A DNA stretch of 64,000 nucleotides from Pseudomonadota bacterium (GCA_036141575.1 JAYZXF010000002.1:9536-73535), one strand, 5' to 3'. Positions 1 to 51,897 are shown, counted from the first letter of the stretch. Numbers and translations: made by a program. The notes: a model not told the origin generated them from the letters alone.

Positions 1-1589
1 TTCTTCGGGATTTCGCCTTTCGCTTCAAACTCAGCAAATTTTTGGTTAAAGCTTTGGATGTTCTTCACGCCCATGTCTGTCATTTGACGGTAACGTTGTT
101 CCATTTCGCGTACCACCCACTTCAGCGCGTTGTTGGCTTTTTGCGGGTCAATGATAACTGGTGTAATGAGGTGTGGAATATCGTTGTAAACAGAAAGTTC
201 CAGCATCTTTGGATCAATCATCACAAACTTTAGTTGGTCAGGTGTCATGCGGTAGAGCAGGCTAAGGATGAATGCATTCATCGCAACCGATTTACCAGAG
301 CCTGTTGTACCCGCAATAAGGGCGTGAGGCATTTTAGCAATGTCTGCGTATGCTGGGTTACCAGATGTATCCACGCCAAGGGCAACTGTTAGCTTGCCTG
401 GATGGGTCTCAAATTCTTCTGTCGCAAGAAGCTCGCGTAGCGTGACCATGCCGCGATTCAGGTTCGGCATTTCAATACCAATAGCATTGCGACCTGGCAC
501 TGTGGCGATACGGATTGACATGGCTGCCATAGAGCGCGCTAGGTCATCAGCAAGGTTAATCACTTGAGAACTTTTGACACCTGCAGCAGGTTCAAGCTCG
601 TAAATTGTAATAACAGGCCCTGGGCAGATGCGCGTGATTTTACCTTGGACACCGTAGTTTGCAAGCTCAGCCTCAATACGGCGCGCGTTTTGTTGAAGGG
701 CTTCATCATCTGTTGCTTCTTTTGCTTCTGGCGGCTCATCAAGCAGATTAAGCGCAGGGAGTGAAAATGAGTCGCTTAAGTTCAGTGGAAGAGCTGTTTG
801 CTTTTCACTTTCAACCTTGGCAGCAGGCTTTATTTGTTTTTGAGGCTTCTCAATAGCAGGTTTAGCAATGCTTTGTGCTGTTTGAGCTTGCTGCTTTTTC
901 ACAGCGTGCGAGATATCTTTCTTTACAGCCTCTGTTGGTGAGAAGAGAGGTAGGTCAATTTGTAGACTGCTCTTGTTGAAATTAATGCGACGCAGGCCGC
1001 GGTATGCATATTTGGCAAACATGCTCACAAAGCTGTAAGCAATGCGAGAGAAACGCGCAACGTCAGAGAAGGCATAGCCAGTCCACCATACAAATGATGT
1101 AAAGAATGTAAGCGCCATAAGTAGCAGTGTGCCAGCATAGCCAATCATTGGGCTACAAATTACAGCAAGGAGTTTGCCGAGAAGGCCTCCGTTACCAATA
1201 CTGTTTGGTGCTGGCCATTCTGGCATAACATTAAGGAGTGTGCAAAGTGTTGCAAAACTAAGGAGCATTGGGAGGAGGGCGCAAAGCCTAAAGCCGGCCT
1301 CATGGAAACCACGGTGCTTTACAAGCTGAGCCGCAAGAACCAGAAAGGCAACAGGGAGCCAGAATACGCTAAGGCCTAGGTATGTGATACCAAGATCAGA
1401 TACATACGATCCTGCAAGGCCCATGCTGTTATTGACCTGCGAGGACGCAGTTGCAACACTTAAGGATGGATCTGTTGCATTATGTGTAAAAAAGGCCAAA
1501 CATAAAAAAATAGCAGTAAAGAATAAACCGAGTGCTACGGCCTCTTGTGTGCGATGTTTGGCAAAATTAGATTGTGCTTTAGTTGGCAT
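1..1589 (-). CDS. ftsK: DNA translocase FtsK, N-terminal membrane and middle/motor part. Partial: the 3' end runs off the window start.
   Basis: Reverse-strand translation from the ATG at 1589 gives N-terminal TM helices, then a Walker A segment (GTTGSGKSV) and an FtsK-like motor sequence (MIDPKMLELSVY...). It is not in the ORF track because it has no in-window stop. Confidence 0.85.
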   Translation of the reverse strand, partial: MPTKAQSNFAKHRTQEAVALGLFFTAIFLCLAFFTHNATDPSLSVATASSQVNNSMGLAGSYVSDLGITYLGLSVFWLPVAFLVLAAQLVKHRGFHEAGFRLCALLPMLLSFATLCTLLNVMPEWPAPNSIGNGGLLGKLLAVICSPMIGYAGTLLLMALTFFTSFVWWTGYAFSDVARFSRIAYSFVSMFAKYAYRGLRRINFNKSSLQIDLPLFSPTEAVKKDISHAVKKQQAQTAQSIAKPAIEKPQKQIKPAAKVESEKQTALPLNLSDSFSLPALNLLDEPPEAKEATDDEALQQNARRIEAELANYGVQGKITRICPGPVITIYELEPAAGVKSSQVINLADDLARSMAAMSIRIATVPGRNAIGIEMPNLNRGMVTLRELLATEEFETHPGKLTVALGVDTSGNPAYADIAKMPHALIAGTTGSGKSVAMNAFILSLLYRMTPDQLKFVMIDPKMLELSVYNDIPHLITPVIIDPQKANNALKWVVREMEQRYRQMTDMGVKNIQSFNQKFAEFEAKGEIPK

Positions 1590-1878
1590 TCCCGTTCTCC
1601 TTCTCCAACTACAGTTTTACGGCAAAAAATCCCAAAAATCCAGTAAAGATCGTACAAAAATACTTTAGAAAAAGTAGAGTGTTACTTATATGATACAAGA
1701 CTTTAATGAATGGCTTTTGATTTGGAATTAAATTGCATGTTCATTAAATGAACAGTTTACAAGAAGCGCAAAACTTATAAGACTTTCTCCAAAGTCTATT
1801 TTTGGGCTGGTCCATTTGGGGCCGCAAAATAATCTCTTCGGAGAACAACTATAACTAAACAAAAATAGGATAAATCCA

Positions 1879-1998
1879 ATGAAGGATATGATCAAAATGA
1901 TGTTGGCTGTATCTATGATTGTTGTAGCTGGTTTCGCTGTATCTGCATGTGATGATGACGATAGCAGTGCTACTGGTCTGGTAATCAGAAACAACTAA
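1879..1998 (+). CDS. Small putative lipoprotein (39 aa), entericidin-like in size.
   Basis: ATG at 1879 with an AGGA box 8-9 nt upstream. The translation is MKDMIKMMLAVSMIVVAGFAVSAC-DDDDSSATGLVIRNN, a signal peptide plus lipobox-like VSAC. Codon usage matches the downstream highly expressed gene. It is below the ORF-track size cutoff. Confidence 0.4.
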   Translation: MKDMIKMMLAVSMIVVAGFAVSACDDDDSSATGLVIRNN

Positions 1999-2074
1999 TC
2001 GTTGATATAAACAACATTTTCGTTAGCTAACGGAAAACTTATAAAAAATAAAATAAATAATAGGGAAGTTCAAA

Positions 2075-3736
2075 ATGAACAAACTTCTTAAAAGCACATT
2101 GATCGCCGGCGGTGTGATGGGCGCTTTCTTCGCTTCTAACGCGAACGCGCAATCATTCAACGTCCTGATCGATGAAATTGAGCTTGTTAGCGATGCTGAC
2201 AACTACATCTCATCTGCTGCTACTGTGTACAAGCCATCTGTTGGTGTAGGTGCAGCAACAACTACAACTGTTGACTTCTTTGCTGATGACAACGAGCGTT
2301 ACAACCTAGTTAAGCCTTCAACTGGCGTGTACGAGTCTATGATCGTTCACTTCACAACTGCTGAAGTATCTGGTTCTACTGCTGGTATCACTAACGTTGA
2401 CCTAACAGACGTTCCAGGAAACGGTGGTTTCCGTGGCGCTCTATTCCACCAGTACGGTGGTCGTGACGTAATGATCTTTGGTTCAATTGGTGACGGTCTT
2501 GGTGCTTCTATTCAAGACGTAATTGCCGGTGCTGTTGCTATTCCAATGCAGCCTGTTGTTGTGACTGCTAGCGGTTTCTCAGTTCCTGAGTTCAACTGGA
2601 ACTTCCCAGCTGCAAGCGTAGAAGAAATTGGTACTGACGTGAACCTTGTAAGTTCTCTAAAGCCATTCACTCTAGCAAACAACGTTGATAGCTCTGACGT
2701 TATCGACTTTGAATTCACTGTTAAAGCAAACGCTTTTGCTGCTGCAACTGACTTCAACGCTGGTACTTCTAACATTGCTGTAGGTCTATTTGCTAAGTCT
2801 ATGACTGATGCTCGTCCTATGTTCCACCAAACGTTCCGCCCATCTGCTGCTGACGTAGCGGACGGTTCTGCGAGCGAAACAATCACATTCTACGATGTTC
2901 CTGCTGTTGACACTGTACCAGTTGCTTGGTTCGATGCTGACAACGATAAAGAACTTGACCAGGGTGAGTACGTTTCTATGGCTGACTTCACAGTAGAAAA
3001 CTCAGATGTACTTGGTACTGCTATCGATGCAGCTCAAACAGCTGACTCTACTGTAGCGTTTGACTACAACAGTGCAATCAGTGCTGTAACTCAAACTGCT
3101 GTACCATTTGGTTACCGTACGTTTGACCTTGTGATCCCAATGGGTGACCTTGATGGCGCGACTGCTGCTCTAGCTCCTGCTGATGCAACATTCAACGCTT
3201 CTGGTATCATGGTTACTGATGCTGGTGCTGGTCCTCTAGCTACAAGCACTTGGGCTTCTACTTCAGGTACAGCTCTTCTACAAGTTGCTTACGACATCTT
3301 TGATGATGGTACAACTCAAGTAGCTCGTAACTTTGACCTAGCGATTGGTTACGGTGAAGAAACTGGTAACAGTGATGCAACAATTGATTCTGGTGAAGCA
3401 ATGTTTGTCGTAATGGCTAACGCTGCTGCTGACAACGTTTCAGGTGTATCATTTGTTTCTAGTACTGAGCTTCTAACGATCTCTGGTATCCCATTCACAG
3501 CTATTACAGCTGTATCTGCGGATAACACTGGTGAGTACTCAGTAACTGTAAACTCAACTGATGACACAACTCCTACAACGACTGCTACTGGTCTTACAAT
3601 TGAAGAAGTTGGTTCTCTAACAGTTGGTGCTGAACTTGAAGCTCCTGTTGCTGGTTCGATCACTGTTGTCGTTGGTGATGGTGATGCATCAAACACTGAT
3701 GGTATCATCGACATCATTGACCTAGGTACTCTATAA
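2075..3736 (+). CDS. Large acidic secreted protein (553 aa) with an N-terminal Sec signal peptide. It is Ala/Thr/Ser/Asp/Gly/Val-rich and Cys-free. Possibly a major surface or S-layer-like protein, or an exoprotein.
   Basis: Long ORF with an AGGGAAG RBS. The signal peptide is MNKLLKSTLIAGGVMGAFFASNANA|QS. Codon usage is strongly biased (gct/tct/act/ggt/cgt/cta), like the ribosomal and atp genes in this window. A strong rho-independent terminator follows directly. Confidence 0.8.
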   Translation: MNKLLKSTLIAGGVMGAFFASNANAQSFNVLIDEIELVSDADNYISSAATVYKPSVGVGAATTTTVDFFADDNERYNLVKPSTGVYESMIVHFTTAEVSGSTAGITNVDLTDVPGNGGFRGALFHQYGGRDVMIFGSIGDGLGASIQDVIAGAVAIPMQPVVVTASGFSVPEFNWNFPAASVEEIGTDVNLVSSLKPFTLANNVDSSDVIDFEFTVKANAFAAATDFNAGTSNIAVGLFAKSMTDARPMFHQTFRPSAADVADGSASETITFYDVPAVDTVPVAWFDADNDKELDQGEYVSMADFTVENSDVLGTAIDAAQTADSTVAFDYNSAISAVTQTAVPFGYRTFDLVIPMGDLDGATAALAPADATFNASGIMVTDAGAGPLATSTWASTSGTALLQVAYDIFDDGTTQVARNFDLAIGYGEETGNSDATIDSGEAMFVVMANAAADNVSGVSFVSSTELLTISGIPFTAITAVSADNTGEYSVTVNSTDDTTPTTTATGLTIEEVGSLTVGAELEAPVAGSITVVVGDGDASNTDGIIDIIDLGTL

Positions 3737-3763
3737 TACCTAAGTTCTACAGATGACTTAATA

Positions 3764-3792
3764 AACCCCCGCAAGTGCGGGGGTTTTACTTT
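3764..3792 (+). terminator. Rho-independent terminator after the acidic secreted protein gene.
   Basis: The sequence aaCCCCCGCAagtGCGGGGGttttactttt is a GC stem followed by a T-run. Confidence 0.6.
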
Positions 3793-3826
3793 TGTGTTTT
3801 TATAAAAATCCTCTATACTTGCTTTC

Positions 3827-4825
3827 ATGAAATTTGAAACTGATTCTTTATTCTGGTCTGCTCAGCAAAAGCTTGAGTCTTTTGCTCAAACACTCCTGTG
3901 CTACATGCATTCAAAACGTACTTCTCTTCTCTCTCTTGTTGTGTTGAGTGTTTTGGTTGCTGTTATGTTGGTCTCTTCTGTTTTTGCACTGATGCCATAC
4001 TTGCCAAGCCTGATGCTCACAAGTAATCCAGAAACGACAGCTTATGCATTTGAAGCAGGTGATTTGAAAAAGGCGCAGGCAGTTTCACTTGAGAGCTATG
4101 ACTCTCTTGAGCGTGCTGCATGGTTTGGTGCATCAACACAGATGGCATTAAACGAGCTGCCAGTAGAAACAGTAAAAGCAGAAACAGCTTTGAATTTGAC
4201 TCTTAAGGGAACAATTTCTGGATCTTCACCTTACGCTATTATTGTGGATAACATGACGGGTGAAAGTAAACTCATTCAAATGGGTGAGTCTGTGCTTAAG
4301 GGGGTTGTGTTAAAAGATATTCAGCGCCGCATGGTTGTACTGAGTAACAAAGGTAAGTTGGAAAAGTTAAGCCTTCCTGGAAACGATTTCTCGCAATTTG
4401 TTAAGAATGAAGGCAGTGCTAAGAAGCCTGCTACTGTGAAACCTTCTCAGAAGCGCTCTGGGCCTTCTAACGTCTATGTTTCAAACAGGGAAGTTGTAAA
4501 GCGTCAAGAAGTTCGTGTTTCAAAAGCTGATATTAAAGATGCGTTCTCCAACCTTGGTCGCCTTGCAACACAAGCACGTTTCTTGCCTCGTATTGAAGGT
4601 GAAGAGATTGTTGGCTTCCGTGTCACAAAGCTTAAGCATGACAGCTTCCTTGCGAAACTCACAGTTCAAGAGAATGACATTCTTGTGAAGGTGGATGATG
4701 TGCCTGTGTCAGACCGTGATCGTCTCTTCCCGATGCTGATGGAACTGAAGAATGCTGATGAGGCTGAAATTGTTCTGAATCGTCGTGGGACGCAAATTGG
4801 TCTTCTTATTAAAGTTGACTCATAG
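3827..4825 (+). CDS. gspC: Type II secretion system protein C (GspC)-like: N-terminal TM segment, HR (PilP-like) domain, and C-terminal PDZ domain.
   Basis: A TM helix (LLSLVVLSVLVAVMLVSSVFAL) is followed by an HR-domain-like segment (LNLTLKGTISGSSPYAIIVDNMTGESKLIQMGESVLKGVVLKDIQRRMVVLSNKGKLEKLSLPG). The C-terminus is PDZ-like (IVGFRVTKLKHDSFLAKLTVQENDILVKVDDVPVSD). No other gsp genes are adjacent. Confidence 0.6.
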   Translation: MKFETDSLFWSAQQKLESFAQTLLCYMHSKRTSLLSLVVLSVLVAVMLVSSVFALMPYLPSLMLTSNPETTAYAFEAGDLKKAQAVSLESYDSLERAAWFGASTQMALNELPVETVKAETALNLTLKGTISGSSPYAIIVDNMTGESKLIQMGESVLKGVVLKDIQRRMVVLSNKGKLEKLSLPGNDFSQFVKNEGSAKKPATVKPSQKRSGPSNVYVSNREVVKRQEVRVSKADIKDAFSNLGRLATQARFLPRIEGEEIVGFRVTKLKHDSFLAKLTVQENDILVKVDDVPVSDRDRLFPMLMELKNADEAEIVLNRRGTQIGLLIKVDS

Positions 4826-4857
4826 ATACGACTTTGTTTTTATATCCCCTCTGTTAT

Positions 4858-4945
4858 GGAGAAGTGGCCGAGTGGCTTAAGGCGCACGCCTGGAACGCGT
4901 GTTGAGGGCAACCTCTCGCAGGTTCGAATCCTGTCTTCTCCGCCA
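4858..4945 (+). tRNA. tRNA-Ser (anticodon GGA), class II tRNA with a long variable arm and an encoded CCA.
   Basis: The 88-nt cloverleaf has acceptor GGAGAAG/CTTCTCC, an anticodon stem CACGC/GCGTG with loop CUGGAAC, a long variable arm, and T-arm GGTTCGAATCC. It ends with GCCA. Confidence 0.9.
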
Positions 4946-4952
4946 TATCAAA

Positions 4953-4976
4953 ACGCCCCCTTGTGGGGCTTTTTAT
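4953..4976 (+). terminator. Rho-independent terminator after tRNA-Ser.
   Basis: The sequence aacGCCCCcttgtGGGGCttttta. Confidence 0.55.
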
Positions 4977-5083
4977 ATGGGGTTAAGAGAAACAGAGATA
5001 AGAACCTGCGAAGCAGGTTTGAAAGCGAGGAACGAGCGCCCGTAAGCGAGCGGAGCGATGCGCAAAGGAGCAAAGCGACTGGC

Positions 5084-5094
5084 AATCCTGTCTT
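5084..5094 (+). repeat. Direct repeat of the tRNA-Ser 3' end (aatcctgtctt, 11/11 nt; also at 4927-4937). Possible att-site remnant.
   Basis: An exact 11-mer match to the T-arm/acceptor 3' portion of the adjacent tRNA sits about 150 bp downstream. It is followed by a low-GC gene. Confidence 0.3.
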
Positions 5095-5158
5095 TTCTTT
5101 ATTTGTACGAACTTATGATTGATGCTACTTTGTGTTGCATTAGTTTTAGAGGTTATAA

Positions 5159-5752
5159 ATGAAAAAAATAATATTCTTAGGCTTGAGTGCTCTTCTGCTT
5201 ATTTCTTGCAGTAAATCAGTTGAAAAACCAGTAAAGGCTGTGGCGACAGCGCCTATGAAGGTGGTGGGAGCTGCTATGGTTGCTCCTCCTTTGATAGGGC
5301 TTTATGCATATGGTTGTTTAGATGCTACTATTCCTCGTGTTTCTTTTGAAAAGGACCGCATTACTGATGTGACAGTTAATGAGCATGTAACGAAAAAAAA
5401 GTATAGCCACACTGTAGTGTGTGAGGCGTATCATGATGGCACCTGTGGGGGGACAGGAGGAGAATGGAAGTGGAGAGAGAAAATGCCTGTTTCTCCTCAG
5501 TACGGTAAGGCTGCTGATGGTCGTGATATTAAAATTAGTTTTGGTGGGTGTGGCGGGTATCCAAATATTACCTTTATAAATGAGCAGGGGGATGTTGATA
5601 GTGATGCTCATAAATATTGTGAAAAATTAGATGTAAACCCTCTGAGTGTTATGAAAGAGCCAGGAAGTATGTGTTACAGCGGACCAGACAAAACCGAACT
5701 TCTTATGAAGTTTACATATAAAAGAAAGCGCTTAAAGAATGAAAGCCATTAA
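5159..5752 (+). CDS. Cys-rich lipoprotein of unknown function (197 aa).
   Basis: The lipoprotein signal is MKKIIFLGLSALLLISC. About 10 Cys residues occur in CGG/GTCGG contexts. It is visibly more AT-rich than neighbouring genes (many aaa/tta/att codons). Its 3' end overlaps the convergent rsmB stop. Confidence 0.7.
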   Translation: MKKIIFLGLSALLLISCSKSVEKPVKAVATAPMKVVGAAMVAPPLIGLYAYGCLDATIPRVSFEKDRITDVTVNEHVTKKKYSHTVVCEAYHDGTCGGTGGEWKWREKMPVSPQYGKAADGRDIKISFGGCGGYPNITFINEQGDVDSDAHKYCEKLDVNPLSVMKEPGSMCYSGPDKTELLMKFTYKRKRLKNESH

Positions 5753-7053
5753 TTAGCTATCTTTTCAGCCCTCTTTAAGACCGCCCCAAAGAATCCGTCA
5801 CAACCATGTTCTGCTGGAGTCAGGCGCAGATATGGTTGGGCGTATGGTAGGTTTACCAAGTTCTGATCTTTGAGAATATCCTGTGCTTGAACAAGTTCAA
5901 AGTCTGGATGCTTCTCTAGGAATTTTTGCACCGTGTGTGTGTTCTCTTGTGGCAGGAGAGAGCATGTAGCGTACACCACGTGGCCTGTATTATTTACAAG
6001 GCGAGAGGCGCTTTCTAGAATACTCAGCTGAATGCGATGGTACTCAGCAATATCTGCTTTAGTCAGGCGCCATTTGGCATCTGGGTTACGGCGCCATGTG
6101 CCAGTACCGCTACATGGGGCATCAATCAGAACCACATCAGCTTTGCCTTTGTGTTTCTTCACCCATTTATCATTCTCATCGCTCAGAAGCTGACGACGAA
6201 CGTTATGAACGCCATTACGCTTACAACGCTTAGAGAGTTCTTCCATGCGACGCTCAACAATATCACAGGCGTAAATGGTACCTTTGTTTTCCATGAGTGC
6301 GGCAAGGGCGAGCGTTTTACCACCTGCACCTGCGCAGAAATCAACAACAGTTTGGCCCGGCTTTGGCGCGCAGAGTTGCGCAAGAATTTGTGAGCCTTCA
6401 TCTTGCACTTCAAACTGACCTTCACGGTAGGCATCGAGTGTGTGGAATGGGAAGCGCTGATGAACACGCACGCCATCTGGCGAGACTTGCATGTCTTCTG
6501 CTTCAAGGCCTTTGGTTTTAAGAGCCTTTTTCACGCGGTCTTTATCAGACTTGAGTGTGTTGACGCGGATGTCCACAGGCGCTTCTGTGAGCATGCCTTT
6601 CATTTGACGTGGGAGTTGGTCCCCAAAAACACCAAGAAGGTGTTCATATGTCGCGTCAGGCACTTCTAGCATTACTTCTTCAGGAGCATTTTCAAACCAG
6701 TTCTCTGGCGTATCGTCTAAAACGTTTTCTTCTGTTGGAGACAGTGGTTCTGGTACGTGGCGCTCACCTGTGCAAGCCTCTTTAAGTTCAAGGTATGTGC
6801 ACACGTCGCTGAGGATAGCGGCAGCAAAGGTGCGCTTTCTTGCGCCTACGTCTCCCGCTTTCCAAATGTATTCAGCACGGCGCCAGTGGCGGAATGTTGT
6901 GTAAACAAGGCTGCTGATAAACTTTTTATCGCTTCCACCAATGTAACGACGGTCACGGAAGTAAGCTGCCATGAGGCGGTCAGCAGGGCGTGGGTTATCC
7001 ATCCAAATTTGGATGATATCAATTGCGGCTTGGAGGCGGGCAGCGTCTTGCAT
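5749..7053 (-). CDS. rsmB: 16S rRNA (cytosine-C5)-methyltransferase, RsmB/Sun (NOL1/NOP2) family.
   Basis: SAM-MTase motifs (VVDFCAGAGGKT, DAPCSGTG) with an N-terminal NusB-like region. Confidence 0.85.
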   Translation of the reverse strand: MQDAARLQAAIDIIQIWMDNPRPADRLMAAYFRDRRYIGGSDKKFISSLVYTTFRHWRRAEYIWKAGDVGARKRTFAAAILSDVCTYLELKEACTGERHVPEPLSPTEENVLDDTPENWFENAPEEVMLEVPDATYEHLLGVFGDQLPRQMKGMLTEAPVDIRVNTLKSDKDRVKKALKTKGLEAEDMQVSPDGVRVHQRFPFHTLDAYREGQFEVQDEGSQILAQLCAPKPGQTVVDFCAGAGGKTLALAALMENKGTIYACDIVERRMEELSKRCKRNGVHNVRRQLLSDENDKWVKKHKGKADVVLIDAPCSGTGTWRRNPDAKWRLTKADIAEYHRIQLSILESASRLVNNTGHVVYATCSLLPQENTHTVQKFLEKHPDFELVQAQDILKDQNLVNLPYAQPYLRLTPAEHGCDGFFGAVLKRAEKIAN

Positions 7054-7058
7054 AGGGG

Positions 7059-7988
7059 TTATTTCACCATTGTTTCGATAAATTCAATAATAGGAGTGGC
7101 CGTATCAATGCCTGTTGTTTTCTCAATACCGTTTAGGCCTGGAGAAGAGTTCACCTCAAGCACAACAGGGCCGTTTTTAGAGCGCAGCATATCTACACCA
7201 GCGACATTAAGGCCGAGTGATTTTGTGGCTTGTATAGCTGTTTGAATCTCTTCTTTAGAGAGTTCAACATTGCCAGCGCTACCACCACGGTGGAGATTTG
7301 AACGGAAGTCACCATCTTTGGCTTTACGTTTCATGCCTGCAATGACTTTATCACCCACAACAAAGCAGCGAATGTCTTCACAGTTGGCTTCTTTCACAAA
7401 CTCTTGCACCATTAGGTTTACCTTAAGGTCCATGAAGGCTTCAATCATGCTGATGGCTGTTTTACGGTCATCCATGAGGAAGACACCGTTACCATGTGTC
7501 CCTTCTAGAAGTTTGACAACAAACTGCTCTTGCTGCATTTGCTCCATAATGTGTGGTAGGTCATCTGGGTTATGGGCAAACCATGTTTCAGGCATGCCAA
7601 TACCATCACGAGAGAGGAGTTGTAGTGCACGTAGTTTGTCGCGTGAACGAGAAATAGCAATGGAGCGGTTTACACTGTGTACGCCCATCATTTCAAATTG
7701 GCGAAGTACGGCTGTTCCGTAAAATGTAATTGAGGCGCCAATGCGCGGAATAATCGCATCAAATCCTTCAAGAGATTCGCCTTTATACACAACAGATGGG
7801 TTGTTGCTTGAAATGTTCATGCTACAGCTGAGCGTGTTGATGATATGCATATCATGTCCACGAGCGCGGCCTGCATCAACAAGGCGGTTTGTTGAGTAAA
7901 TTTTAGGGGCAACAGAAAGCACGCCAATTTTAAGCGGTTTTTTAGCTTTTGTTGGGTTGCTTTTAATAAAATCAAACATGTGTGTCAT
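7059..7988 (-). CDS. rimK: RimK-family alpha-L-glutamate ligase (ATP-grasp).
   Basis: ATP-grasp fold sequence with an N-terminal pre-ATP-grasp region and RimK-like length (~300 aa). Confidence 0.85.
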
Positions 7989-8499
7989 CCAGTTGGTAAC
8001 GCTTAGATTGAAGCGTTATGCAGTGTTCAAGTTGTGGCGTGCCCATAAGGTGGGCAAATGTTGGGCTCACAAGACAAGCTTTACCAAGTGAGCTGCGGCC
8101 AAAGAGCATGCGGTAAGTCATATCTTTACGCGATGTGAGGGTGATATCAATTGGCCAACGGTACGGGCCAACATGCACCCAAGTCAGAATCACGTAGCGT
8201 GTGTTTGTTTTACCGTTGGAGCTGGTGATTTCACGTTTATCGAGAATTTTTGCTTCGCACGTGAGTTCTTCTTTGCGGTTTTTGCGGTTAGGGTGCGTAA
8301 TAAAGCGAACCCACTGCTCACCATCTTTTTCAAATGGGGTAATCTTTTCAGCATGCAGAGAGGACGTCTTTGCGCCTGTATCAATTTTGGCTTCGAGAGC
8401 CTCAATGCCGAGTTTAGGGAGTGCGACTGTTTCCACCCATCCCACCATTACTTGTGGGAATCTTGGCGGCTTGAGCGCTTGTGTCTTTTTCGTAGTCAT
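7972..8499 (-). CDS. RimK-associated retropepsin-like aspartyl protease (ATP-dependent zinc protease family, DUF785).
   Basis: About 175 aa, immediately upstream of and overlapping rimK. The family is routinely paired with RimK. The start is taken at an internal Met (MTTKK...). Confidence 0.7.
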
Positions 8500-8580
8500 G
8501 GTGCGGATTATGGAGCCACTACAAACAAATTGCAACTCTTAGCCAAAAAATGCGTATACATAGTGTTTTGAAACAATATG

Positions 8581-10539
8581 TTACAACGCAATATTTTTTG
8601 CCTTAAGGGCAGAAATAAGCGGTTTAAGTTGCTCTTGAATCGGTTCCCAACTCTTTACGCTAGACGTATAAAGCGGCTTATTTACTTGCTGCATGCTGGC
8701 TGTACGAACGGTACGTTTTGCCTTATGGAAGTTCATAAAGTCTTCAGACCATTCAAGGCCTGTATGTTCAACCAGCTCTTTAATGTGCGTTTCAGGAGTG
8801 CTGACAATATCTTCATATCTTACTGTGTAAACAGAACTGTTTTGCATGTACTGCTGCATCATGTCATTAAAGGTGGCGTATGTTTCCGCAAGAGTTTCTT
8901 GGTTGTAGCTAAACCACTGACCAGTGTTGAACATTTGTTTGTAGCAAGACACACAGATAGAAACAGGGTCACGATCTGTATAGATGATCTTTGCTTCAGG
9001 GAAAGCGGCAGTAATAAGTGGTAGCCATAGCGCGTTAAATGGCATTTTATCTGTAAAGAACTTGGCTTTCATGTCAGGGAATAGCGTTTTTACAGAGCTG
9101 ACGTAGAGTTCTCGTACAGCATTAACGGCGTCTTGTGAAGTCAGTGTCTGAAGTGTATCTTTATCAAGCTTTCCGCCACAAACTTGTAGGGCAATGGTGC
9201 GCATGAGGCTAAGTTCACCACCATCAAATACATCAGGGCTTGTTGTGAGGATTTGTTCAACAAGCGTACTGCCACTCCTTGGCATACCAACAATAAAGAT
9301 CGGTGTCCATGAAAGGTCTACATCATTATCTGCTTTTGGAAGAGGTTCTTTAAATGTGTCCATAAGTAGATTCATAAGATCTACATCTTCATGAGCCTTT
9401 TCTGAGATACTGTTATGGATAATATCAGCACCTTTTGAGAAATGCTCCCACGCTTCAACAGGTTCTTTACGTGCATCGAGTGTGCGGGCAATGGCATAGT
9501 GCCATTTTGATTTTTCAACATCGCTTTTGCACTCGTTAAGGCCTGTTTCCATAGCATTAAACATATCTTCATCAATACGTTTTGCATCAATATGCGTAGC
9601 GCTGAGGAAGCCCCATGCAAAGTCTGGCGTACTCATAGCCGCGTCTCTGGCAAAGTTGAAGGCTTTTTCTGTGTCACCTTCTGCCGAAGCCATGTTGGCC
9701 TTAAGGGTGAGCATCTCAGCGTTCTTTGGATCTTTCGTAAGAATCTGATCGGCGCACTTTGTGGCTTCTTCCATGTTATTCATACCAAAGTGAGCTTTTG
9801 CAAGGTATGTAACAGCTTCTTCTGCATCAGGGCGTAGCGCCAAAACTTTATTAAAGTGTTCTACTGCTTTAGCAAAGGCCGTTGCCGCAAGGTAAGCCCG
9901 ACCAAGTTCCATATGAACTGAAGGGTTGTTGGGTTGAATGCTTTCAGCTGTTTGTAAATGGTGCAGCGCAACAGGAAAGTTTTCTTCTGCAAGGCCAATA
10001 AGGCCAAGGTGAAGGTGTGAACCAATATGTTTTGGGGCGTGTCCCAGCACTTTGTTAAAGTATACTTTTGTTTCTGCGTAGCGGCCCATACGGAAAGAGA
10101 CAACACCTGCAAGCTCTAAACTTTTGAGGCGGTTTTTATCGTGTGCGAGAACGGTTTTAAAATGTCCAAGAGCTTGGAGCATATTGCCAAGTCTCATCGC
10201 ACACTGGCCAGCGCCTTCTTGTGCAAGGAGGTTTTGTGGTGACTTTTGTGTGGTGGCTTCAAACAAAGCGTACGCTGTTTTTAGGTCACCCATTTGTGCC
10301 TTAAGATTGGCGTAGTTTGTTTGGAAAAGTTCATTTTCAGGCTCTAGCTCAATAGCTCTTTGTAGGTGTATGTCACCAGATGCATCGCCAGCTTGGAGCT
10401 TTGCCATGCCTAAAAAGTGTGTGGCAGCAGCATCGTTTTTATTGGCTTTAACAAGAGATTCATAAGCCGCAATTGCGCCCTGTAAATCGCCACTTTGATG
10501 AAGAGATTGTGCGTCCTGTAAATTCATAAGGCCCATCAT
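8581..10539 (-). CDS. TPR-repeat protein with a C-terminal sulfotransferase domain.
   Basis: Multiple TPR-like repeats in the N-terminal two thirds. The C-terminal domain has a PAPS 5'-phosphosulfate-binding-like motif (IFIVGMPRSGSTLV) and a downstream RDP motif. The start is chosen at internal MMGLMN to avoid overlap with the divergent transporter. Confidence 0.75.
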   Translation of the reverse strand: MMGLMNLQDAQSLHQSGDLQGAIAAYESLVKANKNDAAATHFLGMAKLQAGDASGDIHLQRAIELEPENELFQTNYANLKAQMGDLKTAYALFEATTQKSPQNLLAQEGAGQCAMRLGNMLQALGHFKTVLAHDKNRLKSLELAGVVSFRMGRYAETKVYFNKVLGHAPKHIGSHLHLGLIGLAEENFPVALHHLQTAESIQPNNPSVHMELGRAYLAATAFAKAVEHFNKVLALRPDAEEAVTYLAKAHFGMNNMEEATKCADQILTKDPKNAEMLTLKANMASAEGDTEKAFNFARDAAMSTPDFAWGFLSATHIDAKRIDEDMFNAMETGLNECKSDVEKSKWHYAIARTLDARKEPVEAWEHFSKGADIIHNSISEKAHEDVDLMNLLMDTFKEPLPKADNDVDLSWTPIFIVGMPRSGSTLVEQILTTSPDVFDGGELSLMRTIALQVCGGKLDKDTLQTLTSQDAVNAVRELYVSSVKTLFPDMKAKFFTDKMPFNALWLPLITAAFPEAKIIYTDRDPVSICVSCYKQMFNTGQWFSYNQETLAETYATFNDMMQQYMQNSSVYTVRYEDIVSTPETHIKELVEHTGLEWSEDFMNFHKAKRTVRTASMQQVNKPLYTSSVKSWEPIQEQLKPLISALKAKNIAL

Positions 10540-10633
10540 AGTGGGGCAGCTCTCAAAATTAAAGAATAATTTGTGAATCCTGTGGCCTGCGGTTAAAGTA
10601 TGAAGGCTAAAAAGATTAAGAATAGGGAATCCC

Positions 10634-11968
10634 ATGTGGTTTAAAAAATCAGAAGACCAGACATCTCCAAAAGCATTCAGGCGCCAAATTACAGAGCATA
10701 TTCAAGAAAAGCTCTGGCTAAAGATCCTTATCGCCCTGTTTTTAGGTGGGGTATTTGGGTATATCCTTAGCCCTGATGTGGCTGTCATGAAAGCTGAACA
10801 TGCAACACAGATTTCAACGTGGGTCGCTTTCCCAGGGTACTTGTTCCTGCGTGTTCTTCAAATGGTGGTGATCCCTCTTGTTATGGCCTCTCTTATTCTT
10901 GGGATTGCAGGTGGTGAAAGTTTAAGTCTGATTAAAAAACTCAGCTGGCGTGTGATTCTTTACTTTATGTTTACAACAACCATTGCCGTGAGCATTGGTT
11001 TAACGCTTGGTAACTTGTTTGAGCCGGGCCAGATGATGGATATTGAAAAAGCGAGTACGTTGACACAAGGCTACACGCCTCCACCAACCAATCAAGCTCT
11101 TACAGATGGCAGTAATATTCCAAAGCGTATTGTGGGTCTTATTCCTAAAAACCCATTTGCTTCTATTGCCAGCGGAGACATGCTGAGCATTGTGATCTTC
11201 TCGATCTTTATTGGGTTTGCTCTGGCTTCTATGAGCCTTGTACGTTCAAAACCTATTTTAGAGCTGGCGCAGAGTACTCAAGACTTGTGTATGGTGCTGG
11301 TAAGTTGGATGATTAAACTTGCGCCGTACGCGGTGTTTGGTTTGATTATGGATGCGATGGTGAAACTCGGCGTAAGCTCTATTCTTGCAATGGGGCTTTA
11401 TGTGGTGACAGTCTTTACAGGGCTTGTGTTGATGGTGGTGTTTTATGGCTTAATTGTAACGCTTCTGGGCATGAACCCTCTTGAGTACTTTAAGAAGATT
11501 CGTGAAGCGCAGCTGATTGCGTTTTCAACGTCCTCTTCAGCAGCAACTATGCCAGTCACACTTCGTGTGGCAGATGAGAAGCTGGGTGTGAAGCCATCCG
11601 TATCTGGCTTTACAATTCCGCTGGGTACAACCATTAACATGGATGGTACTGCGCTTTACCAAACCATTGCGACGATCTTCCTTGCGCAAGTCTTCCAGAT
11701 TGATCTTTCAATGTGGGATATGGGTATGGTTCTGACTCTCGCCATTGCGGCCTCTGTGGGTACGCCGGGTACACCTGGTGTTGGTATTATTGTGTTGGCT
11801 ACAATTCTTGTGAGTGTGGGTGTACCACCTGAAGGGATTGCGCTAATTTTGGGTGTGGACCGTATTTTAGATATGTGTCGTACAACGATTAACGTAACAG
11901 GTGACTTAACAGCGACTGTGGTCATGAATCGTCTGCTTAAGCATGAGGAATCAGAAGATGAAAGCTAA
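10634..11968 (+). CDS. Dicarboxylate/amino acid:cation symporter (DAACS; GltP/DctA/SstT family).
   Basis: A polytopic membrane protein with characteristic DAACS signature segments (e.g. the hydrophobic run LVVTVFTGLVLMVVFYGLIV). Confidence 0.8.
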   Translation: MWFKKSEDQTSPKAFRRQITEHIQEKLWLKILIALFLGGVFGYILSPDVAVMKAEHATQISTWVAFPGYLFLRVLQMVVIPLVMASLILGIAGGESLSLIKKLSWRVILYFMFTTTIAVSIGLTLGNLFEPGQMMDIEKASTLTQGYTPPPTNQALTDGSNIPKRIVGLIPKNPFASIASGDMLSIVIFSIFIGFALASMSLVRSKPILELAQSTQDLCMVLVSWMIKLAPYAVFGLIMDAMVKLGVSSILAMGLYVVTVFTGLVLMVVFYGLIVTLLGMNPLEYFKKIREAQLIAFSTSSSAATMPVTLRVADEKLGVKPSVSGFTIPLGTTINMDGTALYQTIATIFLAQVFQIDLSMWDMGMVLTLAIAASVGTPGTPGVGIIVLATILVSVGVPPEGIALILGVDRILDMCRTTINVTGDLTATVVMNRLLKHEESEDES

Positions 11969-12965
11969 ACTTCTTTTAGGATTAAGCCTGCTTGCAGCAG
12001 TCACATCACATGCGCAACCTGCTTTAGAACTGCCTATAAACTGTGTTCTAGGGCGTACATGTTTTATTGTGGATTTATATGACCATGGTCGTAACTTGGA
12101 TGAAATGGGGCATCCGTTTCTGATGGATTACACAGGCAACAAGCGTACGACAGATGATTACTACGGAACGCGTTTCCAAATCTATAATTCAACCCTTGCA
12201 GATAGAGGGGCAGATATCACGGCTTCAGCTGATGGTGTGGTTGTCTCTGTTCGTGACCAACTGCCGAGCGATCCTTATGCGATTACAGTGTTAGGGTCTC
12301 GCTTGCGTGAGTCTGTTGGGAACTCTGTTGTTGTAGACCATGGTAATGGTTGGGAAACGCAATACAGCGGCCTCTTAAAAAACAGTGTGCCTGTGAAAAG
12401 AGGGGACAAAGTTAAAGCGGGTGATGTGCTTGGTAAGGTGCAACGCTTTGCGCGCCAAAGCTACCCAACAATGCACTTTGTTGTACGTCATAAGAGTATT
12501 CCAATTGATCCGTTTGTAGGCGTGTATGACGGTATGTTCACAACAGACTTAAAGCGTAAGCCGCTTTGGAAAGAAAACTTTGAGCAAATTGCTTTTACAC
12601 GTGATGTTGGTTTAATTGCGACAGGTTTTTCTAAAGAAGTGCCAGACATTGAGCGTGTAAAGCGTTCTATGCTGGATAGTAGCTACTTTAGAGGGGATGA
12701 CGATCAGATTCTGTTTTGGAGTTATGCCTTTGGCCTTAAGAAGGGCGATAAAGTGACCATTGCTATCTATAACCCTAAAGGGGCCATGGTTTCTCGTCAT
12801 GAGGATATCCTTCCTAAGGATCAGGAACGCTACTTTGCTTATGTAGGTCGTAAGGCTGAAACTTACGGCCTTCCACAAGGTGTGTATCGTGGTAGTATTA
12901 CGGTGAAGCGAGAGGGAGAAACTTTGTTGAGTGATGTCGATACCATTCGCGTGAATGCATTCTAA
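11958..12965 (+). CDS. Secreted M23-family metallopeptidase.
   Basis: The signal peptide is MKAKLLLGLSLLAAVTSHA. An M23 core is present (VVVDHGNGWETQYSGL...GDKVKAGDVLGKV...HFVVRH). Confidence 0.75.
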   Translation: MKAKLLLGLSLLAAVTSHAQPALELPINCVLGRTCFIVDLYDHGRNLDEMGHPFLMDYTGNKRTTDDYYGTRFQIYNSTLADRGADITASADGVVVSVRDQLPSDPYAITVLGSRLRESVGNSVVVDHGNGWETQYSGLLKNSVPVKRGDKVKAGDVLGKVQRFARQSYPTMHFVVRHKSIPIDPFVGVYDGMFTTDLKRKPLWKENFEQIAFTRDVGLIATGFSKEVPDIERVKRSMLDSSYFRGDDDQILFWSYAFGLKKGDKVTIAIYNPKGAMVSRHEDILPKDQERYFAYVGRKAETYGLPQGVYRGSITVKREGETLLSDVDTIRVNAF

Positions 12966-12971
12966 ACACAA

Positions 12972-12996
12972 ACAAGGCCCCAGAATGGGGCCTTGT
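12972..12996. terminator. Bidirectional rho-independent terminator between the convergent M23 and HExxH genes.
   Basis: The sequence caaGGCCCCagaatGGGGCCttgttctt. Confidence 0.5.
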
Positions 12997-13008
12997 TCTT
13001 ATTTTCGA

Positions 13009-13814
13009 TTAGTCGCCATATACCTCGTCAAGGTGGGCTGCATAGGCTTCGGCTTGAGCGCGGAACGGGATGCCATGAAGCATTTTACTTTTAAGCCAGC
13101 TGATGTGATCACTGAGAGCTGACTCGCGGTTGCGCATTGAGCCATATATCAGCAAATACATTTTGAACTCAACCTCACGGTAGCTTTCCTGCCAAATACT
13201 GGACCATTCGTAATTGCTGAAGCCGTATTGTGCAATACGGCGCACTTCAGGGTCGGCACTGTTTTTGTGCGTTTCCTTCATGCACTCCAGTCGAGCGCGC
13301 ATGATGTAGTCTTTCAGTGCTTTGGGATCTTCAGCAAAGAGAGCATAGTTATCCTCATTGAGGAAGCGATCCGCCCAAATGGGCTGCTCAAAGGTCAGGG
13401 GGCGAAGGTCAGGCATCCAGAAATACACCATTACATCGCTGATGGTCCTAGCAAGGGCTTCTTCCTTTAGCATTTTTTGATGCCAAGCCTCAAAAGAGAG
13501 GTTGATATCATATTCCGCGTAAGCCATGTGGCAGATTTCATGTAGCAGAGCCATATCTGCAACATAGGGGTTTTTGAATTTGATGTCGCTGAGATCAGCT
13601 AATGCGCTAAACCATGGCGTATTGTGGAAGCGTTCAATGCTTGGGTCCGTATAGCGATAGAATACGCGAGGGAGTTCTGCAAATTTTTCCAGAATGCCAT
13701 GTAAGGGTGAGCTTTTCTGGCCTGCAAAAATCCGAAACATGTCTGTTTGCCAGAGGGTGTTGGTGAAGGTGATGATGTCCTGTTTGCCGCTAATGGCGTG
13801 GATATCTTTCATAT
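13009..13814 (-). CDS. Hypothetical protein with an HExxH zinc-metallopeptidase-like motif.
   Basis: Start at MKDIHAIS, with an AGGAG RBS 7 nt upstream. It contains the motif LLHEICHMAYAEYD. No recognisable family was found by eye. Confidence 0.6.
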
Positions 13815-31579: not shown

Positions 31580-32347
31580 TTAAGACGATGTTTTTAGGTC
31601 TAAGGGTGCGTCTGGATAGTGAGAAGCAAATTGATTGAGGCGGTCAAGTTGTGCTTTTGAGAGCTTTTTGCCATGCCCTTCCTTATCTGAATTTACAACG
31701 ATTTTAACCGCTTTTTGAATATCTTCATCTTTATATGAGATGTTGTAGTAATCAAGGACTTGGGCAAGGGCTTTTTCTGGGGATGCGGTTACATCTTCAT
31801 AGGTAAGCCAGAGTGCATCTTTTCTATGCTCATGCCATTGCCCTAAAAACTGCGTGCACCAGCTGCCTGCAAAGTCAACGATAAAATCGAGCTGTTTGTC
31901 TTCGTGCCAGCTCTTAAACTCTTCAGGAGCATGAATAGAAGGCTGGTTGAGAGAATCTTTCAGAAGGAGGTCCTTGTGAGAGATGATCACATCAGGAAGA
32001 TTGCGTGTCAGGATCACAGGCTTAATATTGAATTTTTCCATCAGATCTAAGTTTTTAGGAGAAGGTCTTGTATGTTGGTGAGACACTGTATTCATGCCGT
32101 AGCCGTCTGTCAGCCTTGGTAGGTAGAGGTCTTGCTCTTGATGCGGATTGTATGTGTAAGAGTGCGGAATAAAGCCTGTTGCTTCTTCAATCAAGCGTAC
32201 TAAATAGGTTGAAGCTGACTTCGGCATCGCTGCAATAAAAATAGAATGCCCAGAGCGGCGTGTCACTCTACGGAATTTACTATGAACAAGAGTCACTCTT
32301 GTACTGGTTTTATGTGCGGCGCGCACGAGTCTTTTATATAATTTCAT
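31580..32347 (-). CDS. Sulfotransferase-domain protein (255 aa).
   Basis: A PAPS-binding-like motif (IFIAAMPKSASTYLV) and downstream TRNLPD/KD motifs. Confidence 0.65.
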   Translation of the reverse strand: MKLYKRLVRAAHKTSTRVTLVHSKFRRVTRRSGHSIFIAAMPKSASTYLVRLIEEATGFIPHSYTYNPHQEQDLYLPRLTDGYGMNTVSHQHTRPSPKNLDLMEKFNIKPVILTRNLPDVIISHKDLLLKDSLNQPSIHAPEEFKSWHEDKQLDFIVDFAGSWCTQFLGQWHEHRKDALWLTYEDVTASPEKALAQVLDYYNISYKDEDIQKAVKIVVNSDKEGHGKKLSKAQLDRLNQFASHYPDAPLDLKTSS

Positions 32348-51327: not shown

Positions 51328-51897
51328 TTGGCTATTACAGCAATTGCAGGCGCTGCAGCAAAGGCAGGGGCAGCCGCTGGTAAGGCGGGCGGTTTTGCTG
51401 CGAAAGGTGCTGGAAGAGTTGCGAAAGGTGCAGCTAAAAAAGCTGGAAAAGCTGCTAAAAATAAAGTGAAGCGTGGTATTTTATCGCGCGTCTTAAGCTT
51501 TTTTGCCAACCCGATTGTGCAGGCGATTATTGCAATTCCGTTCCCTGTGGCTATTATTTCCAACCAAATTATTCCTTCTATTAGTAAGGAAATTAAAATT
51601 ATAAAAATGGTGCTCGCCTTGTTTGCAGGGGGAGGAGAGGCTGCGATTGCTTGGCCTATAATTATTATTGGGCTTGCAGCAACAGCTGCAGGTGCTGCTG
51701 CTGGTAACGCTATATGTGACTGGTCATGGTGTACAAAATTGGGTGCTATGATTGGTGCAGGTATTGGTACGCTAACTGGTGGTGCTACAATTGCAGGAAC
51801 TATGGCTCTTATCTTTCACACCTCTCTTATTGCTCTGGCGTGGTTTATTTTGGTATTTAAATTTGTGATAAAATCTGTTTTACCGAAAAGAATGTAG
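51328..51897 (+). CDS. Hypothetical membrane protein with an Ala/Gly/Lys-rich N-terminal low-complexity region and glycine-zipper TM segments. TTG start.
   Basis: The frame is open from an upstream stop, and the only plausible start is TTG at 51328, after an AAGGGA RBS. Motifs GAMIGAGIGTLTGGATIAG. The antisense ORF 51297-51563 is a compositional mirror. Confidence 0.5.
   Translation: MAITAIAGAAAKAGAAAGKAGGFAAKGAGRVAKGAAKKAGKAAKNKVKRGILSRVLSFFANPIVQAIIAIPFPVAIISNQIIPSISKEIKIIKMVLALFAGGGEAAIAWPIIIIGLAATAAGAAAGNAICDWSWCTKLGAMIGAGIGTLTGGATIAGTMALIFHTSLIALAWFILVFKFVIKSVLPKRM

Follow-up and report, generated by a model that had tools for sequence, protein, structure and literature searches.

A recombining lipoprotein-exoprotein cassette beside an orphan gspC: a possible S-layer-like surface locus in uncultured marine Alphaproteobacteria

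In a 64,000-nucleotide stretch of DNA from a Pseudomonadota bacterium (GCA_036141575.1, JAYZXF010000002.1:9536-73535; hereafter the window, meaning this whole stretch), three adjacent genes on the same strand lie between ftsK and a tRNA-Ser gene. The first two open reading frames (ORFs) encode a 39-aa prelipoprotein (ORF1) and a 553-aa acidic, cysteine-free exoprotein (ORF2), and the third (ORF3) encodes a GspC protein; the host is an uncultured marine alphaproteobacterium. ORF1 and ORF2 together form a hypervariable cassette with sharp boundaries. Our favoured interpretation, which is held tentatively, is that this cassette encodes a micro-lipoprotein and a major surface-layer (S-layer)-like surface protein, and that ORF3 is the GspC component of a type II secretion system (T2SS) encoded elsewhere in the genome.

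Comparison of the window with the related locus L004 (GCA_035092365.1) delimits the cassette. By blastn, the two are 96.7% identical over positions 1-1809, 92.5% over 3763-5097 and 94.8% over 5770-13575, with no similarity over 1810-3762 save for 77 bp at an EF-hand loop in ORF2. At the protein level, identity is 99.4% for FtsK, 96.4% for GspC, 98.8% for RsmB and 99.7% for RimK, against 48.6% for ORF1 and 35.9% for ORF2. Synonymous divergence (dS) is saturated in the cassette (1.5 for ORF2 and 2.5 for ORF1) and about 0.2 in gspC, rsmB and rimK. The cassette is therefore not the product of evolution in place; recombination has exchanged it for a distantly related allele. On the left the breakpoint falls just 3' of the promoter region of ORF1, and on the right it coincides exactly with the foot of the terminator that follows ORF2. 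Replacement may also be partial: relative to locus L006, only the C-terminal half of ORF2 (2970-3691) has been exchanged, and DNA similarity resumes at 3692. Three assemblies with three different ORF2 alleles have AtpA proteins that are 100% identical.

The same division is seen across the ORF2 family, in which aa 26-310 are consistently better conserved and identity over aa 311-520 falls to 14-27%. A short C-terminal tail is kept in four alleles although the region preceding it is not, and is missing from several others. Taken together, this pattern points to a dominant exposed surface structure, with a conserved part for assembly or anchoring and an exposed part that diversifies. Strain variability around a conserved part is a common though not universal trait of S-layer proteins, and here it takes the form of the cassette swap and the better-conserved N-terminus of ORF2. 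We suggest that the whole cassette, or the C-terminal half of ORF2 alone, would be exchanged among strains by homologous recombination in the conserved flanks, as would be expected under phage, grazer or immune-like selection.

The ORF2 product itself has several properties of an abundant exported protein. An AxA-type signal peptide (aa 1-25, 2075-2149) with predicted cleavage at ANA|QS precedes a sequence rich in Ala (13.7%), Thr (10.7%), Val (10.1%), Asp (9.0%), Gly (8.9%) and Ser (8.5%), with no Cys, 72 Asp and Glu residues against 15 Lys and Arg, and a pI of about 4.05. An earlier reading of this DNA, made from the sequence alone (the sequence-only reading), had described a Sec-signal-bearing, Cys-free and extremely acidic protein, and these values bear it out. 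A pI of 4, the lack of Cys and richness in Ala, Thr, Val, Asp, Gly and Ser are the classic composition of S-layer proteins, a profile that ORF2 matches and that is the same across its family.

The codon adaptation index (CAI) of ORF2 is 0.785, second among 53 genes in the window, using a training set of rplT, rpmI, atpA, atpH, sucC, sucD, mdh, ahpC, coxA and coxB from which ORF2 was left out. By per-codon log-likelihood ratio it ranks first, above the ribosomal, ATP-synthase and tricarboxylic acid (TCA) cycle genes of the window, in agreement with the earlier claim that its codon usage resembles that of the most highly expressed genes. Judged by codon bias, its Shine-Dalgarno sequence and a strong terminator, ORF2 is probably very highly expressed. 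Overall, we consider it fairly likely that the protein is abundant and either exposed at the surface or secreted; that it specifically forms a lattice is a more doubtful proposition.

ORF2 constitutes a new, unannotated protein family. It has no match in Pfam or NCBIfam, and only 30 clusters (at 50% identity) were found among 1.84 billion representatives, all within a very narrow lineage. The 27 members analysed all carry a signal peptide and an EF-hand loop, all are acidic, and most are Cys-free. An AlphaFold2 model built from a 27-sequence alignment is all-beta, with multiple beta-sandwiches (predicted local distance difference test score, pLDDT, of 70; predicted template modelling score, pTM, of 0.70), while a 7-sequence alignment gave an unusable model with a pLDDT of 35. 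Structure searches returned no specific relative and matched only immunoglobulin (Ig)-, FnIII- and C2-type domains, pilins and adhesins. A phage origin of ORF2 was considered and rejected.

Conservation within the family peaks at the motif AWFDADNDKELDxGE, which contains a 12-residue loop of the form D-x-[DN]-x-[DN]-x-x-[LW]-D-x-G-E in 27 of the 27 members. This loop fits the EF-hand pattern, with ligands at positions 1, 3, 5, 7, 9 and 12, and the region gave faint lanmodulin and EF-hand matches, with the Pfam EF-hand models below threshold. On the basis of this pattern, ORF2 may bind Ca2+.

ORF1 is a genuine micro-lipoprotein gene that has been overlooked by ORF tracks. Its product has a signal peptide (aa 1-23) and a lipobox, AVSA|C (Cys24), from which lipidation is predicted, and the mature peptide would have just 16 residues, C-DDDD-SSATG-LVIRNN. 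The gene is kept in seven lineages, comprising every related locus that reaches the upstream region, with lipobox variants VSA|C, ISA|C, LSA|C and LTA|C and an invariant Cys. All share the same layout of a signal peptide, lipobox, CDD(D), a Ser/Gly-rich linker and a short C-terminus of alternating hydrophobic residues, which reads LVIRNN, FSITNN, FTFSGS, FVIKN or FSMKNGG depending on the lineage. The dN/dS ratio of 0.18-0.35 indicates a real gene, and a Shine-Dalgarno sequence, AGGA, lies 8 nt upstream of the start. The lipoprotein-like ORF of the sequence-only reading therefore stands. Entericidins EcnA and EcnB are small bacterial lipoproteins with 41-48-aa precursors, and resemble ORF1 in size (about 40 aa before processing), in having a signal peptide and lipobox, and in the very short lipopeptide that remains after cleavage. 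However, ORF1 has no sequence kinship with them, is acidic (CDDD...), has a beta-strand-like conserved C-terminus, and is always paired and co-inherited with the ORF2 family. Co-variation of ORF1 and ORF2 was set aside as a sign of interaction, since the two are physically linked in one recombination block.

ORF3 is very likely a true GspC. It scores 54.7 bits over aa 40-183 against Pfam T2SSC (PF11356; gathering score 27), and its orthologues score 55-63 bits. A profile of six orthologues aligns at aa 118-183 with 3oss_C (E 1.5e-7), the periplasmic HR (homology region, PilP-like) domain of GspC from enterotoxigenic Escherichia coli (ETEC) crystallised with the secretin, and at aa 89-189 with another GspC, 7oio_A. 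Residues 254-329 of the profile align with the PDZ domains of PulC (5hj1), OutC (6hcg_e) and EpsC (2i6v/2i4s) at E values of 2e-4 to 2e-3. The Pfam PDZ_2 model reaches 19.1 bits, under its gathering score of 27, so that the PDZ domain is sub-threshold in Pfam and supported by the alignment to known structures. The hydrophobic run at aa 33-55, read from the sequence, is kept in all orthologues. The transmembrane (TM)-HR-PDZ architecture first proposed for this gene is thus confirmed. ORF3 fails the curated equivalog cutoffs of NCBIfam (GspC_delta 98.8 against 150; TIGR01713 64.4 against 101.6), which argues for a divergent GspC subfamily; its NCBI label is 'type II secretion system protein N'. 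Purifying selection acts on the gene (dN/dS 0.07-0.13), somewhat less strictly than on rimK or rsmB, and its CAI of 0.59 is mid to low in the window.

All three genes are almost certainly real and conserved, and their coordinates and strand are as the sequence-only reading gave them. The order ftsK (minus strand), small ORF, ORF2 homologue of about 520-580 aa and T2SSC protein is shared by the window clade (L001-L007, L010, L011 and L026), L009, L012 (a 715-kb contig, BWSM_27) and L025 (a 1.78-Mb contig). The trio is therefore an evolutionarily conserved block, found beside ftsK in four lineages of uncultured Alphaproteobacteria that have diverged deeply from one another, among which identity to the window drops to 26-29% for ORF2 and 32-44% for GspC. 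FtsK_4TM, alpha, SpoIIIE and gamma domains were found in the ftsK orthologues of related loci. The genes 3' of gspC vary by lineage, being tRNA-Ser and rsmB, or a lipoprotein, Peptidase_A24 and DnaJ-domain protein, or a 17-kDa antigen and lepA. A metagenome scan with the 7-sequence ORF2 alignment yielded one locus.

The locus is organised as two insulated units, of which ORF1-ORF2 would be very strong and gspC weak. Upstream of ORF1, a perfect palindrome that is unique in the window recurs at the same position, with at most one mismatch, in L001, L004, L006, L025 and L009, in non-coding DNA that is otherwise unalignable; it is a candidate operator of the ORF1-ORF2 unit, whose promoter would lie near 1756-1783. 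Both genes have good Shine-Dalgarno sequences. Between them, the 76-nt spacer holds nothing stronger than a weak hairpin (-7 kcal/mol, z -0.65) that lacks a T-tract, making co-transcription likely, and the pair would be expressed strongly as one unit ending at the terminator at 3763. There, a 10-bp GC-rich stem (3763-3786; -23.7 kcal/mol, z = -3.2) followed by a T-tract is kept in the window clade, and L009, L012 and L025 have an equivalent one, so that the strong terminator previously ascribed to ORF2 is present in all loci.

Downstream, gspC has a candidate promoter of its own that is 100% conserved in the window clade; its -10 hexamer ends 7 nt ahead of the ATG, and there is no Shine-Dalgarno sequence. 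The window clade, L009 and L025, three diverged lineages, share a TATA[AC]T hexamer that ends 6-7 nt ahead of the ATG, again with no Shine-Dalgarno sequence, and the first 26 gspC codons are conserved in frame. The gspC mRNA is probably leaderless, as had been supposed, and the conserved hexamer position and in-frame codons support this well by comparison across lineages. A sigma-70-like match (TCGACA-18-TATAAT, 11/12) at 3708-3737 on the plus strand is the best in the region. It spans the ORF2 stop upstream of the terminator, would give a very short transcript and is probably due to chance; it was not adopted as the gspC promoter.

Table 1. Features of the locus, with positions counted from the first nucleotide of the window
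Feature	Position	Strand	Remarks
ftsK, 5' part (partial)	1-1589	-	Left boundary; translation from 1589 begins MPTKAQ...
Palindrome TGTTCA-N5-TGAACA	1738-1754	+	Perfect; abuts -35-like TTTACA (1756-1761); candidate operator/promoter of ORF1-ORF2
Hypervariable allelic cassette	1810-3762	+	5' untranslated region, ORF1 and ORF2 to terminator foot
ORF1	1879-1998	+	39-aa prelipoprotein
ORF2	2075-3736	+	553-aa acidic Cys-free exoprotein
ORF2 better-conserved N-terminal beta-sandwich region	aa 26-310, 2150-3004	+	
ORF2 EF-hand-type 12-residue loop	aa 287-298, 2933-2968	+	DADNDKELDQGE; within the conserved motif; family conservation peak
ORF2 highly variable C-terminal region	aa 311-520, 3005-3634	+	
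ORF2 conserved C-terminal tail	3677-3736	+	GDGDASNTDGIIDIIDLGTL; single EF-hand/dockerin-like loop; right-hand recombination anchor in window clade
Intrinsic terminator of ORF1-ORF2	3763-3796	+	AAACCCCCGC-AAGT-GCGGGGGTTT, then T-tract
Candidate gspC promoter	3792-3819	+	TTGTGT (3792-3797), 16-nt spacer, TATACT (3814-3819)
ORF3 (gspC)	3827-4825	+	332 aa
ORF3 cytoplasmic N-terminus	aa 1-32	+	
ORF3 TM	~aa 33-55, 3923-3991	+	23-residue hydrophobic run after basic HSKRTS
ORF3 T2SSC/HR region	aa 40-183, 3944-4375	+	HR core 4178-4375; basic linker next
ORF3 PDZ	~aa 254-329, 4586-4813	+	
tRNA-Ser(GGA)	4858-4945	+	Right boundary of block; integration hot spot

At the scale of the window and related loci, gspC is an orphan. 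Pfam scans of essentially all sizeable ORFs in the 64-kb window found no other T2SS gene, the genes seen being housekeeping genes such as rsmB, rimK, the cox genes, lepA, pheST, mdh, sucCD, dnaX and the atp genes, and no other gsp gene lies in the 10 kb beyond its right end. Similarly, tblastn searches of the window and 16 lineage loci (270 kb), with GspC, D, E and F of Saccharophagus and the downstream proteins G-M of its canonical cluster (L013) as probes, matched GspC alone, in line with the initial observation that no other gsp genes are nearby. An operon in L012 is the sole connection seen between this gspC subfamily and other machinery of type IV filaments or T2SSs.

In that operon (L012, BWSM_27, 9743-12465), gspC overlaps the start of a gene for a 176-aa lipoprotein without a known family, possibly a pilotin. 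The lipoprotein gene in turn overlaps one for a 208-aa Peptidase_A24 prepilin peptidase, and a gene for a DnaJ-domain protein comes next. A search for close relatives of the prepilin peptidase among 5.8 billion proteins returned the query alone.

How these parts might work together can be proposed as follows. ORF2 would be a Sec-exported, acidic, Cys-free, Ca2+-binding beta-sandwich protein, probably a major surface protein, in which aa 26-310 with the EF-hand loop would serve as the conserved assembly or anchoring part and the C-terminal half would be exposed and diversifying. After Sec export and folding in the periplasm, it would cross the outer membrane through the T2SS. GspC would form an inner-membrane 'clamp', docking onto the secretin through its HR domain and helping to select some cargoes through its PDZ domain; it would be transcribed separately, at a low level and from a leaderless mRNA, with the remaining T2SS genes elsewhere in the genome. 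ORF2 is proposed as a T2SS cargo because a Sec-exported protein needs a route across the outer membrane and gspC is the only conserved neighbour related to export: Pfam scans of the window revealed no autotransporter barrel, usher or type I secretion system (T1SS) near the locus. Export of ORF2 by a T2SS that uses this GspC is, by analogy with known systems, a realistic possibility, though short of an even bet.

The sequence-only reading had offered two accounts of ORF2, as the cargo of a dedicated GspC and, alternatively, as an S-layer-like protein. The evidence favours the S-layer-like major surface protein, and the two accounts are compatible, since both Aeromonas and Pseudoalteromonas have S-layer genes that adjoin T2SS genes. 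That GspC is an allele-specific cargo specificity factor is contradicted, as it remains 96.4% identical where ORF2 is only 35.9% identical. Since the cargo allele changes and GspC does not follow it, recognition of ORF2, if any, must rely on the core that is invariant, and GspC would thus recognise conserved beta-sandwich features and not the variable part. The idea of a single module likewise holds in part: the block is conserved, but it comprises two transcription units that evolve differently, with ORF1 and ORF2 swapped and gspC staying in place.

A more elaborate, and improbable, version of this proposal is a minimal, self-contained 'surface coat kit', in which the ORF1 lipopeptide would be a detachable lipid anchor that docks into the N-terminal domain of ORF2 by beta-strand complementation, using its conserved C-terminal strand (LVIRNN, FSITNN or FVIKN). 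The leaderless GspC would be a dedicated adaptor that feeds a single, massively produced cargo into the T2SS through the invariant beta-sandwich and EF-hand core. Such a strand-complementing anchor would account for ORF1 and ORF2 always being exchanged as one cassette.

Several observations weigh against the S-layer and T2SS interpretation. The window and the 270 kb of related sequence yielded no gene for a secretin, ATPase, platform protein or pseudopilin. GspC varies independently of the ORF2 allele, the most distant allele accompanying the most similar GspC. A terminator separates ORF2 from gspC. Adjacency alone is weak functional evidence, because ftsK is as syntenic as gspC, and the gene order may reflect a stable neighbourhood rather than function. 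An orphan gspC is not exceptional either, Legionella lspC being a precedent. The pLDDT of the ORF2 model is below 50 at 136 of 553 residues, about a quarter, and ORF2 has no homology or specific fold match to known S-layer families (RsaA, VapA, Slr4, SLH-type and archaeal csg). For ORF1, Asp at positions +2 to +4 leads to inner-membrane retention under the Lol rules of E. coli, which argues against an outer-membrane anchor role unless sorting rules differ here; a role as an anchor is in any case putative.

Some of these points are also accommodated by the reading that the genes are merely neighbours, which we regard as unlikely but as the strongest of the alternatives. ORF3 would then be the GspC of a general, scattered T2SS, and ORF2 an abundant envelope protein, not a dedicated cargo, that remains periplasmic or in the outer membrane, or gets to the surface by another route, their adjacency being an inherited order in a stable ftsK neighbourhood. 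The synteny of ftsK, the independence of GspC from the ORF2 allele and the occurrence of a terminator and separate promoter between ORF2 and gspC in all lineages fit this reading, as does Legionella lspC, which stands alone beside an unrelated secreted protein and yet serves a general T2SS. However, the adjacency of ORF2 and gspC has outlasted divergence to about 26-44% identity, with everything downstream changing; cassette-type hypervariability is typical of exposed and not periplasmic structures; and no alternative outer-membrane export device, such as an autotransporter barrel, usher or T1SS, is encoded nearby.

Less probable again is that ORF2 forms no lattice and is a soluble secreted or loosely attached exoprotein, such as a Ca2+-dependent adhesin, a biofilm-matrix protein or an Ig-like binding protein. 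A multi-domain beta-sandwich model with an EF-hand loop, fold matches to pilins, adhesins, FnIII and C2 domains, and the lack of a match to known S-layer families are all consistent with such a protein. Codon adaptation above that of ribosomal, ATP-synthase and TCA genes, a composition classic for S-layer proteins, and whole-allele replacement among near-clonal strains, which is typical of dominant surface antigens, argue against it.

It is quite improbable that ORF3 is a GspC-like protein working without any T2SS, as an inner-membrane PDZ scaffold or chaperone in the periplasm for ORF2 or the ORF1 lipopeptide, for example in tethering or quality control. The absence of other gsp genes from the 270 kb of lineage sequence searched, scores below the NCBIfam GspC equivalog cutoffs, the small size of a related genome (about 1.8 Mb) and the resemblance of the PDZ domain to those of HtrA and DegS as well would suit this role. 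Against it, the best-conserved and best-scoring part of ORF3 is the HR domain, which has no known function beyond docking to the N0 domain of the secretin, and gspC of L012 shares an operon with a prepilin peptidase gene, an enzyme that implies pseudopilins or pilins. Finally, the sequence-only reading's remark that the C-terminus of ORF2 is vaguely like that of repeats-in-toxin (RTX) proteins exported by a T1SS finds support solely in the Asp/Gly-rich tail and is refuted by sequence motif tests, leaving this route extremely improbable: the tail has a single EF-hand/dockerin-type loop, GGxGxD repeats number 0 in ORF2 and 0-1 (chance matches) in 27 relatives, the classical cleavable Sec signal is kept in all family members, several alleles lack the tail, and no ABC transporter, membrane fusion protein (MFP) or TolC genes lie nearby.

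Genetic linkage of a Sec-dependent, S-layer-like protein to type II secretion, as the favoured interpretation would have it, is already known from other bacteria. In Aeromonas salmonicida, vapA adjoins a dedicated T2SS (sps) gene set, to which export of the protein is attributed (PMC4483657). VapA (AhsA), an acidic surface-array protein of roughly 50 kDa with a Sec signal that is encoded beside T2SS genes, resembles what is proposed for ORF2. However, the whole set spsD-L lies beside vapA, whereas gspC is alone here and T2SS export would follow by analogy; ORF2 also has no sequence or fold kinship to S-layer families, and no micro-lipoprotein partner has been described in Aeromonas. Slr4, the S-layer protein of Pseudoalteromonas tunicata, is the most abundant protein of that organism, has a Sec/SPI signal and adjoins a conserved T2SS cluster (PMC7821379). 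The likeness extends to the marine habitat, the Sec signal and the adjacency to T2SS genes in an arrangement kept across relatives. In contrast, slr4 is gammaproteobacterial, lies downstream of a full gsp cluster and belongs to another protein family, and neither cassette-type replacement nor a leaderless orphan gspC has been described for it.

Legionella pneumophila provides a parallel for the solitary gspC. Its T2SS is complete though scattered over five loci, and lspC, encoding one of the most divergent T2SS components, lies apart from the other four, beside a secreted Sel1 protein (PMC6617341). As here, the gene stands away from gspD-M and always beside a gene for a signal-peptide protein. 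It differs in being upstream of, and co-transcribed with, its neighbour, whereas gspC here is downstream, behind a terminator and putatively leaderless, and in belonging to a known complete T2SS, whereas here a T2SS is presumed. With regard to cargo recognition, the PDZ domain of Vibrio cholerae EpsC is needed only for VesB, in which the signal resides in an Ig-like fold (PMC12369372). ORF2, with its predicted Ig-like beta-sandwiches, could resemble this PDZ-dependent cargo; epsC and vesB are, however, not genetically linked, and an interaction between ORF2 and GspC is purely hypothetical. Five features of the present locus are new. The ORF2 family is one and the lineage that hosts it another; in addition, a 39-aa lipoprotein is always paired and exchanged with ORF2, the linkage to type II secretion has shrunk to one, probably leaderless, gspC, and the replacement cassette has precise limits.

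The surroundings of the locus are also variable among strains. A 1198-aa intimin/invasin-like protein (IAT_beta with Beta_helix/NosD repeats) is encoded on the minus strand in L004 (1620-5216) and L006 (1574-5170), between genes for a CitMHS transporter and Glyco_transf_9, and is absent there in L001; it adds a further variable surface protein at a distance of a few kb from the locus. Directly 3' of tRNA-Ser is a second strain-variable islet (window 5098-5769), which in the window holds a plus-strand ORF (5159-5752) for a 197-aa lipoprotein with 7 Cys, no family match and a CAI of 0.435, the second-lowest in the window, and which in L004 and L006 is occupied by a DUF1003 gene. In L001, an island with integrase, primase and restriction-modification genes is inserted 3' of the tRNA, the gene after which varies among strains. 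The clade itself has been deposited both as 'uncultured Magnetococcales' (L011) and as 'Alphaproteobacteria' or 'Pseudomonadota bacterium' (other deposits).

Elsewhere in the window, two sulfotransferase genes that are conserved in relatives, one for a 684-aa TPR and sulfotransferase protein (8581-10635, minus strand) and one standing alone (31580-32347, minus strand), may indicate sulfated envelope glycans or proteins. A 189-aa ORF at 51328-51897 (plus strand; CAI 0.51, low) begins with a long Ala/Lys/Gly low-complexity segment (AGAAAKAGAAAGKAGGFAAKGAGRVAKGAAKKAGKAAKNK). The Rfam model Rp_sR47 (Rickettsia sRNA47) matches 53719-54018 on the plus strand above its gathering score (69.7 bits, E 1.7e-15). 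This match is antisense within the minus-strand gene for a ctpA-like S41 peptidase (53419-54693) and may be due to conserved coding sequence and not to a small RNA.

For annotation, the results indicate that ORF2 homologues should be named putative surface-layer proteins and ORF3 GspC rather than 'protein N', and that ORF1, a conserved 39-aa lipoprotein that exposes a blind spot of gene callers, should be called as a gene. If the proposed interpretation is true, the dominant cell-surface protein of a widespread uncultured marine alphaproteobacterial lineage, and its probable export route, would have been identified. How T2SSs recognise folded substrates is an unsolved question, and the pairing of one cargo with one GspC would then offer a simple natural setting in which to study it. 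In near-clonal strains and at a fixed place in the chromosome, the cassette presents a clean natural case of one putative surface antigen replacing another, and as such bears on phage-host and grazing dynamics in the ocean.

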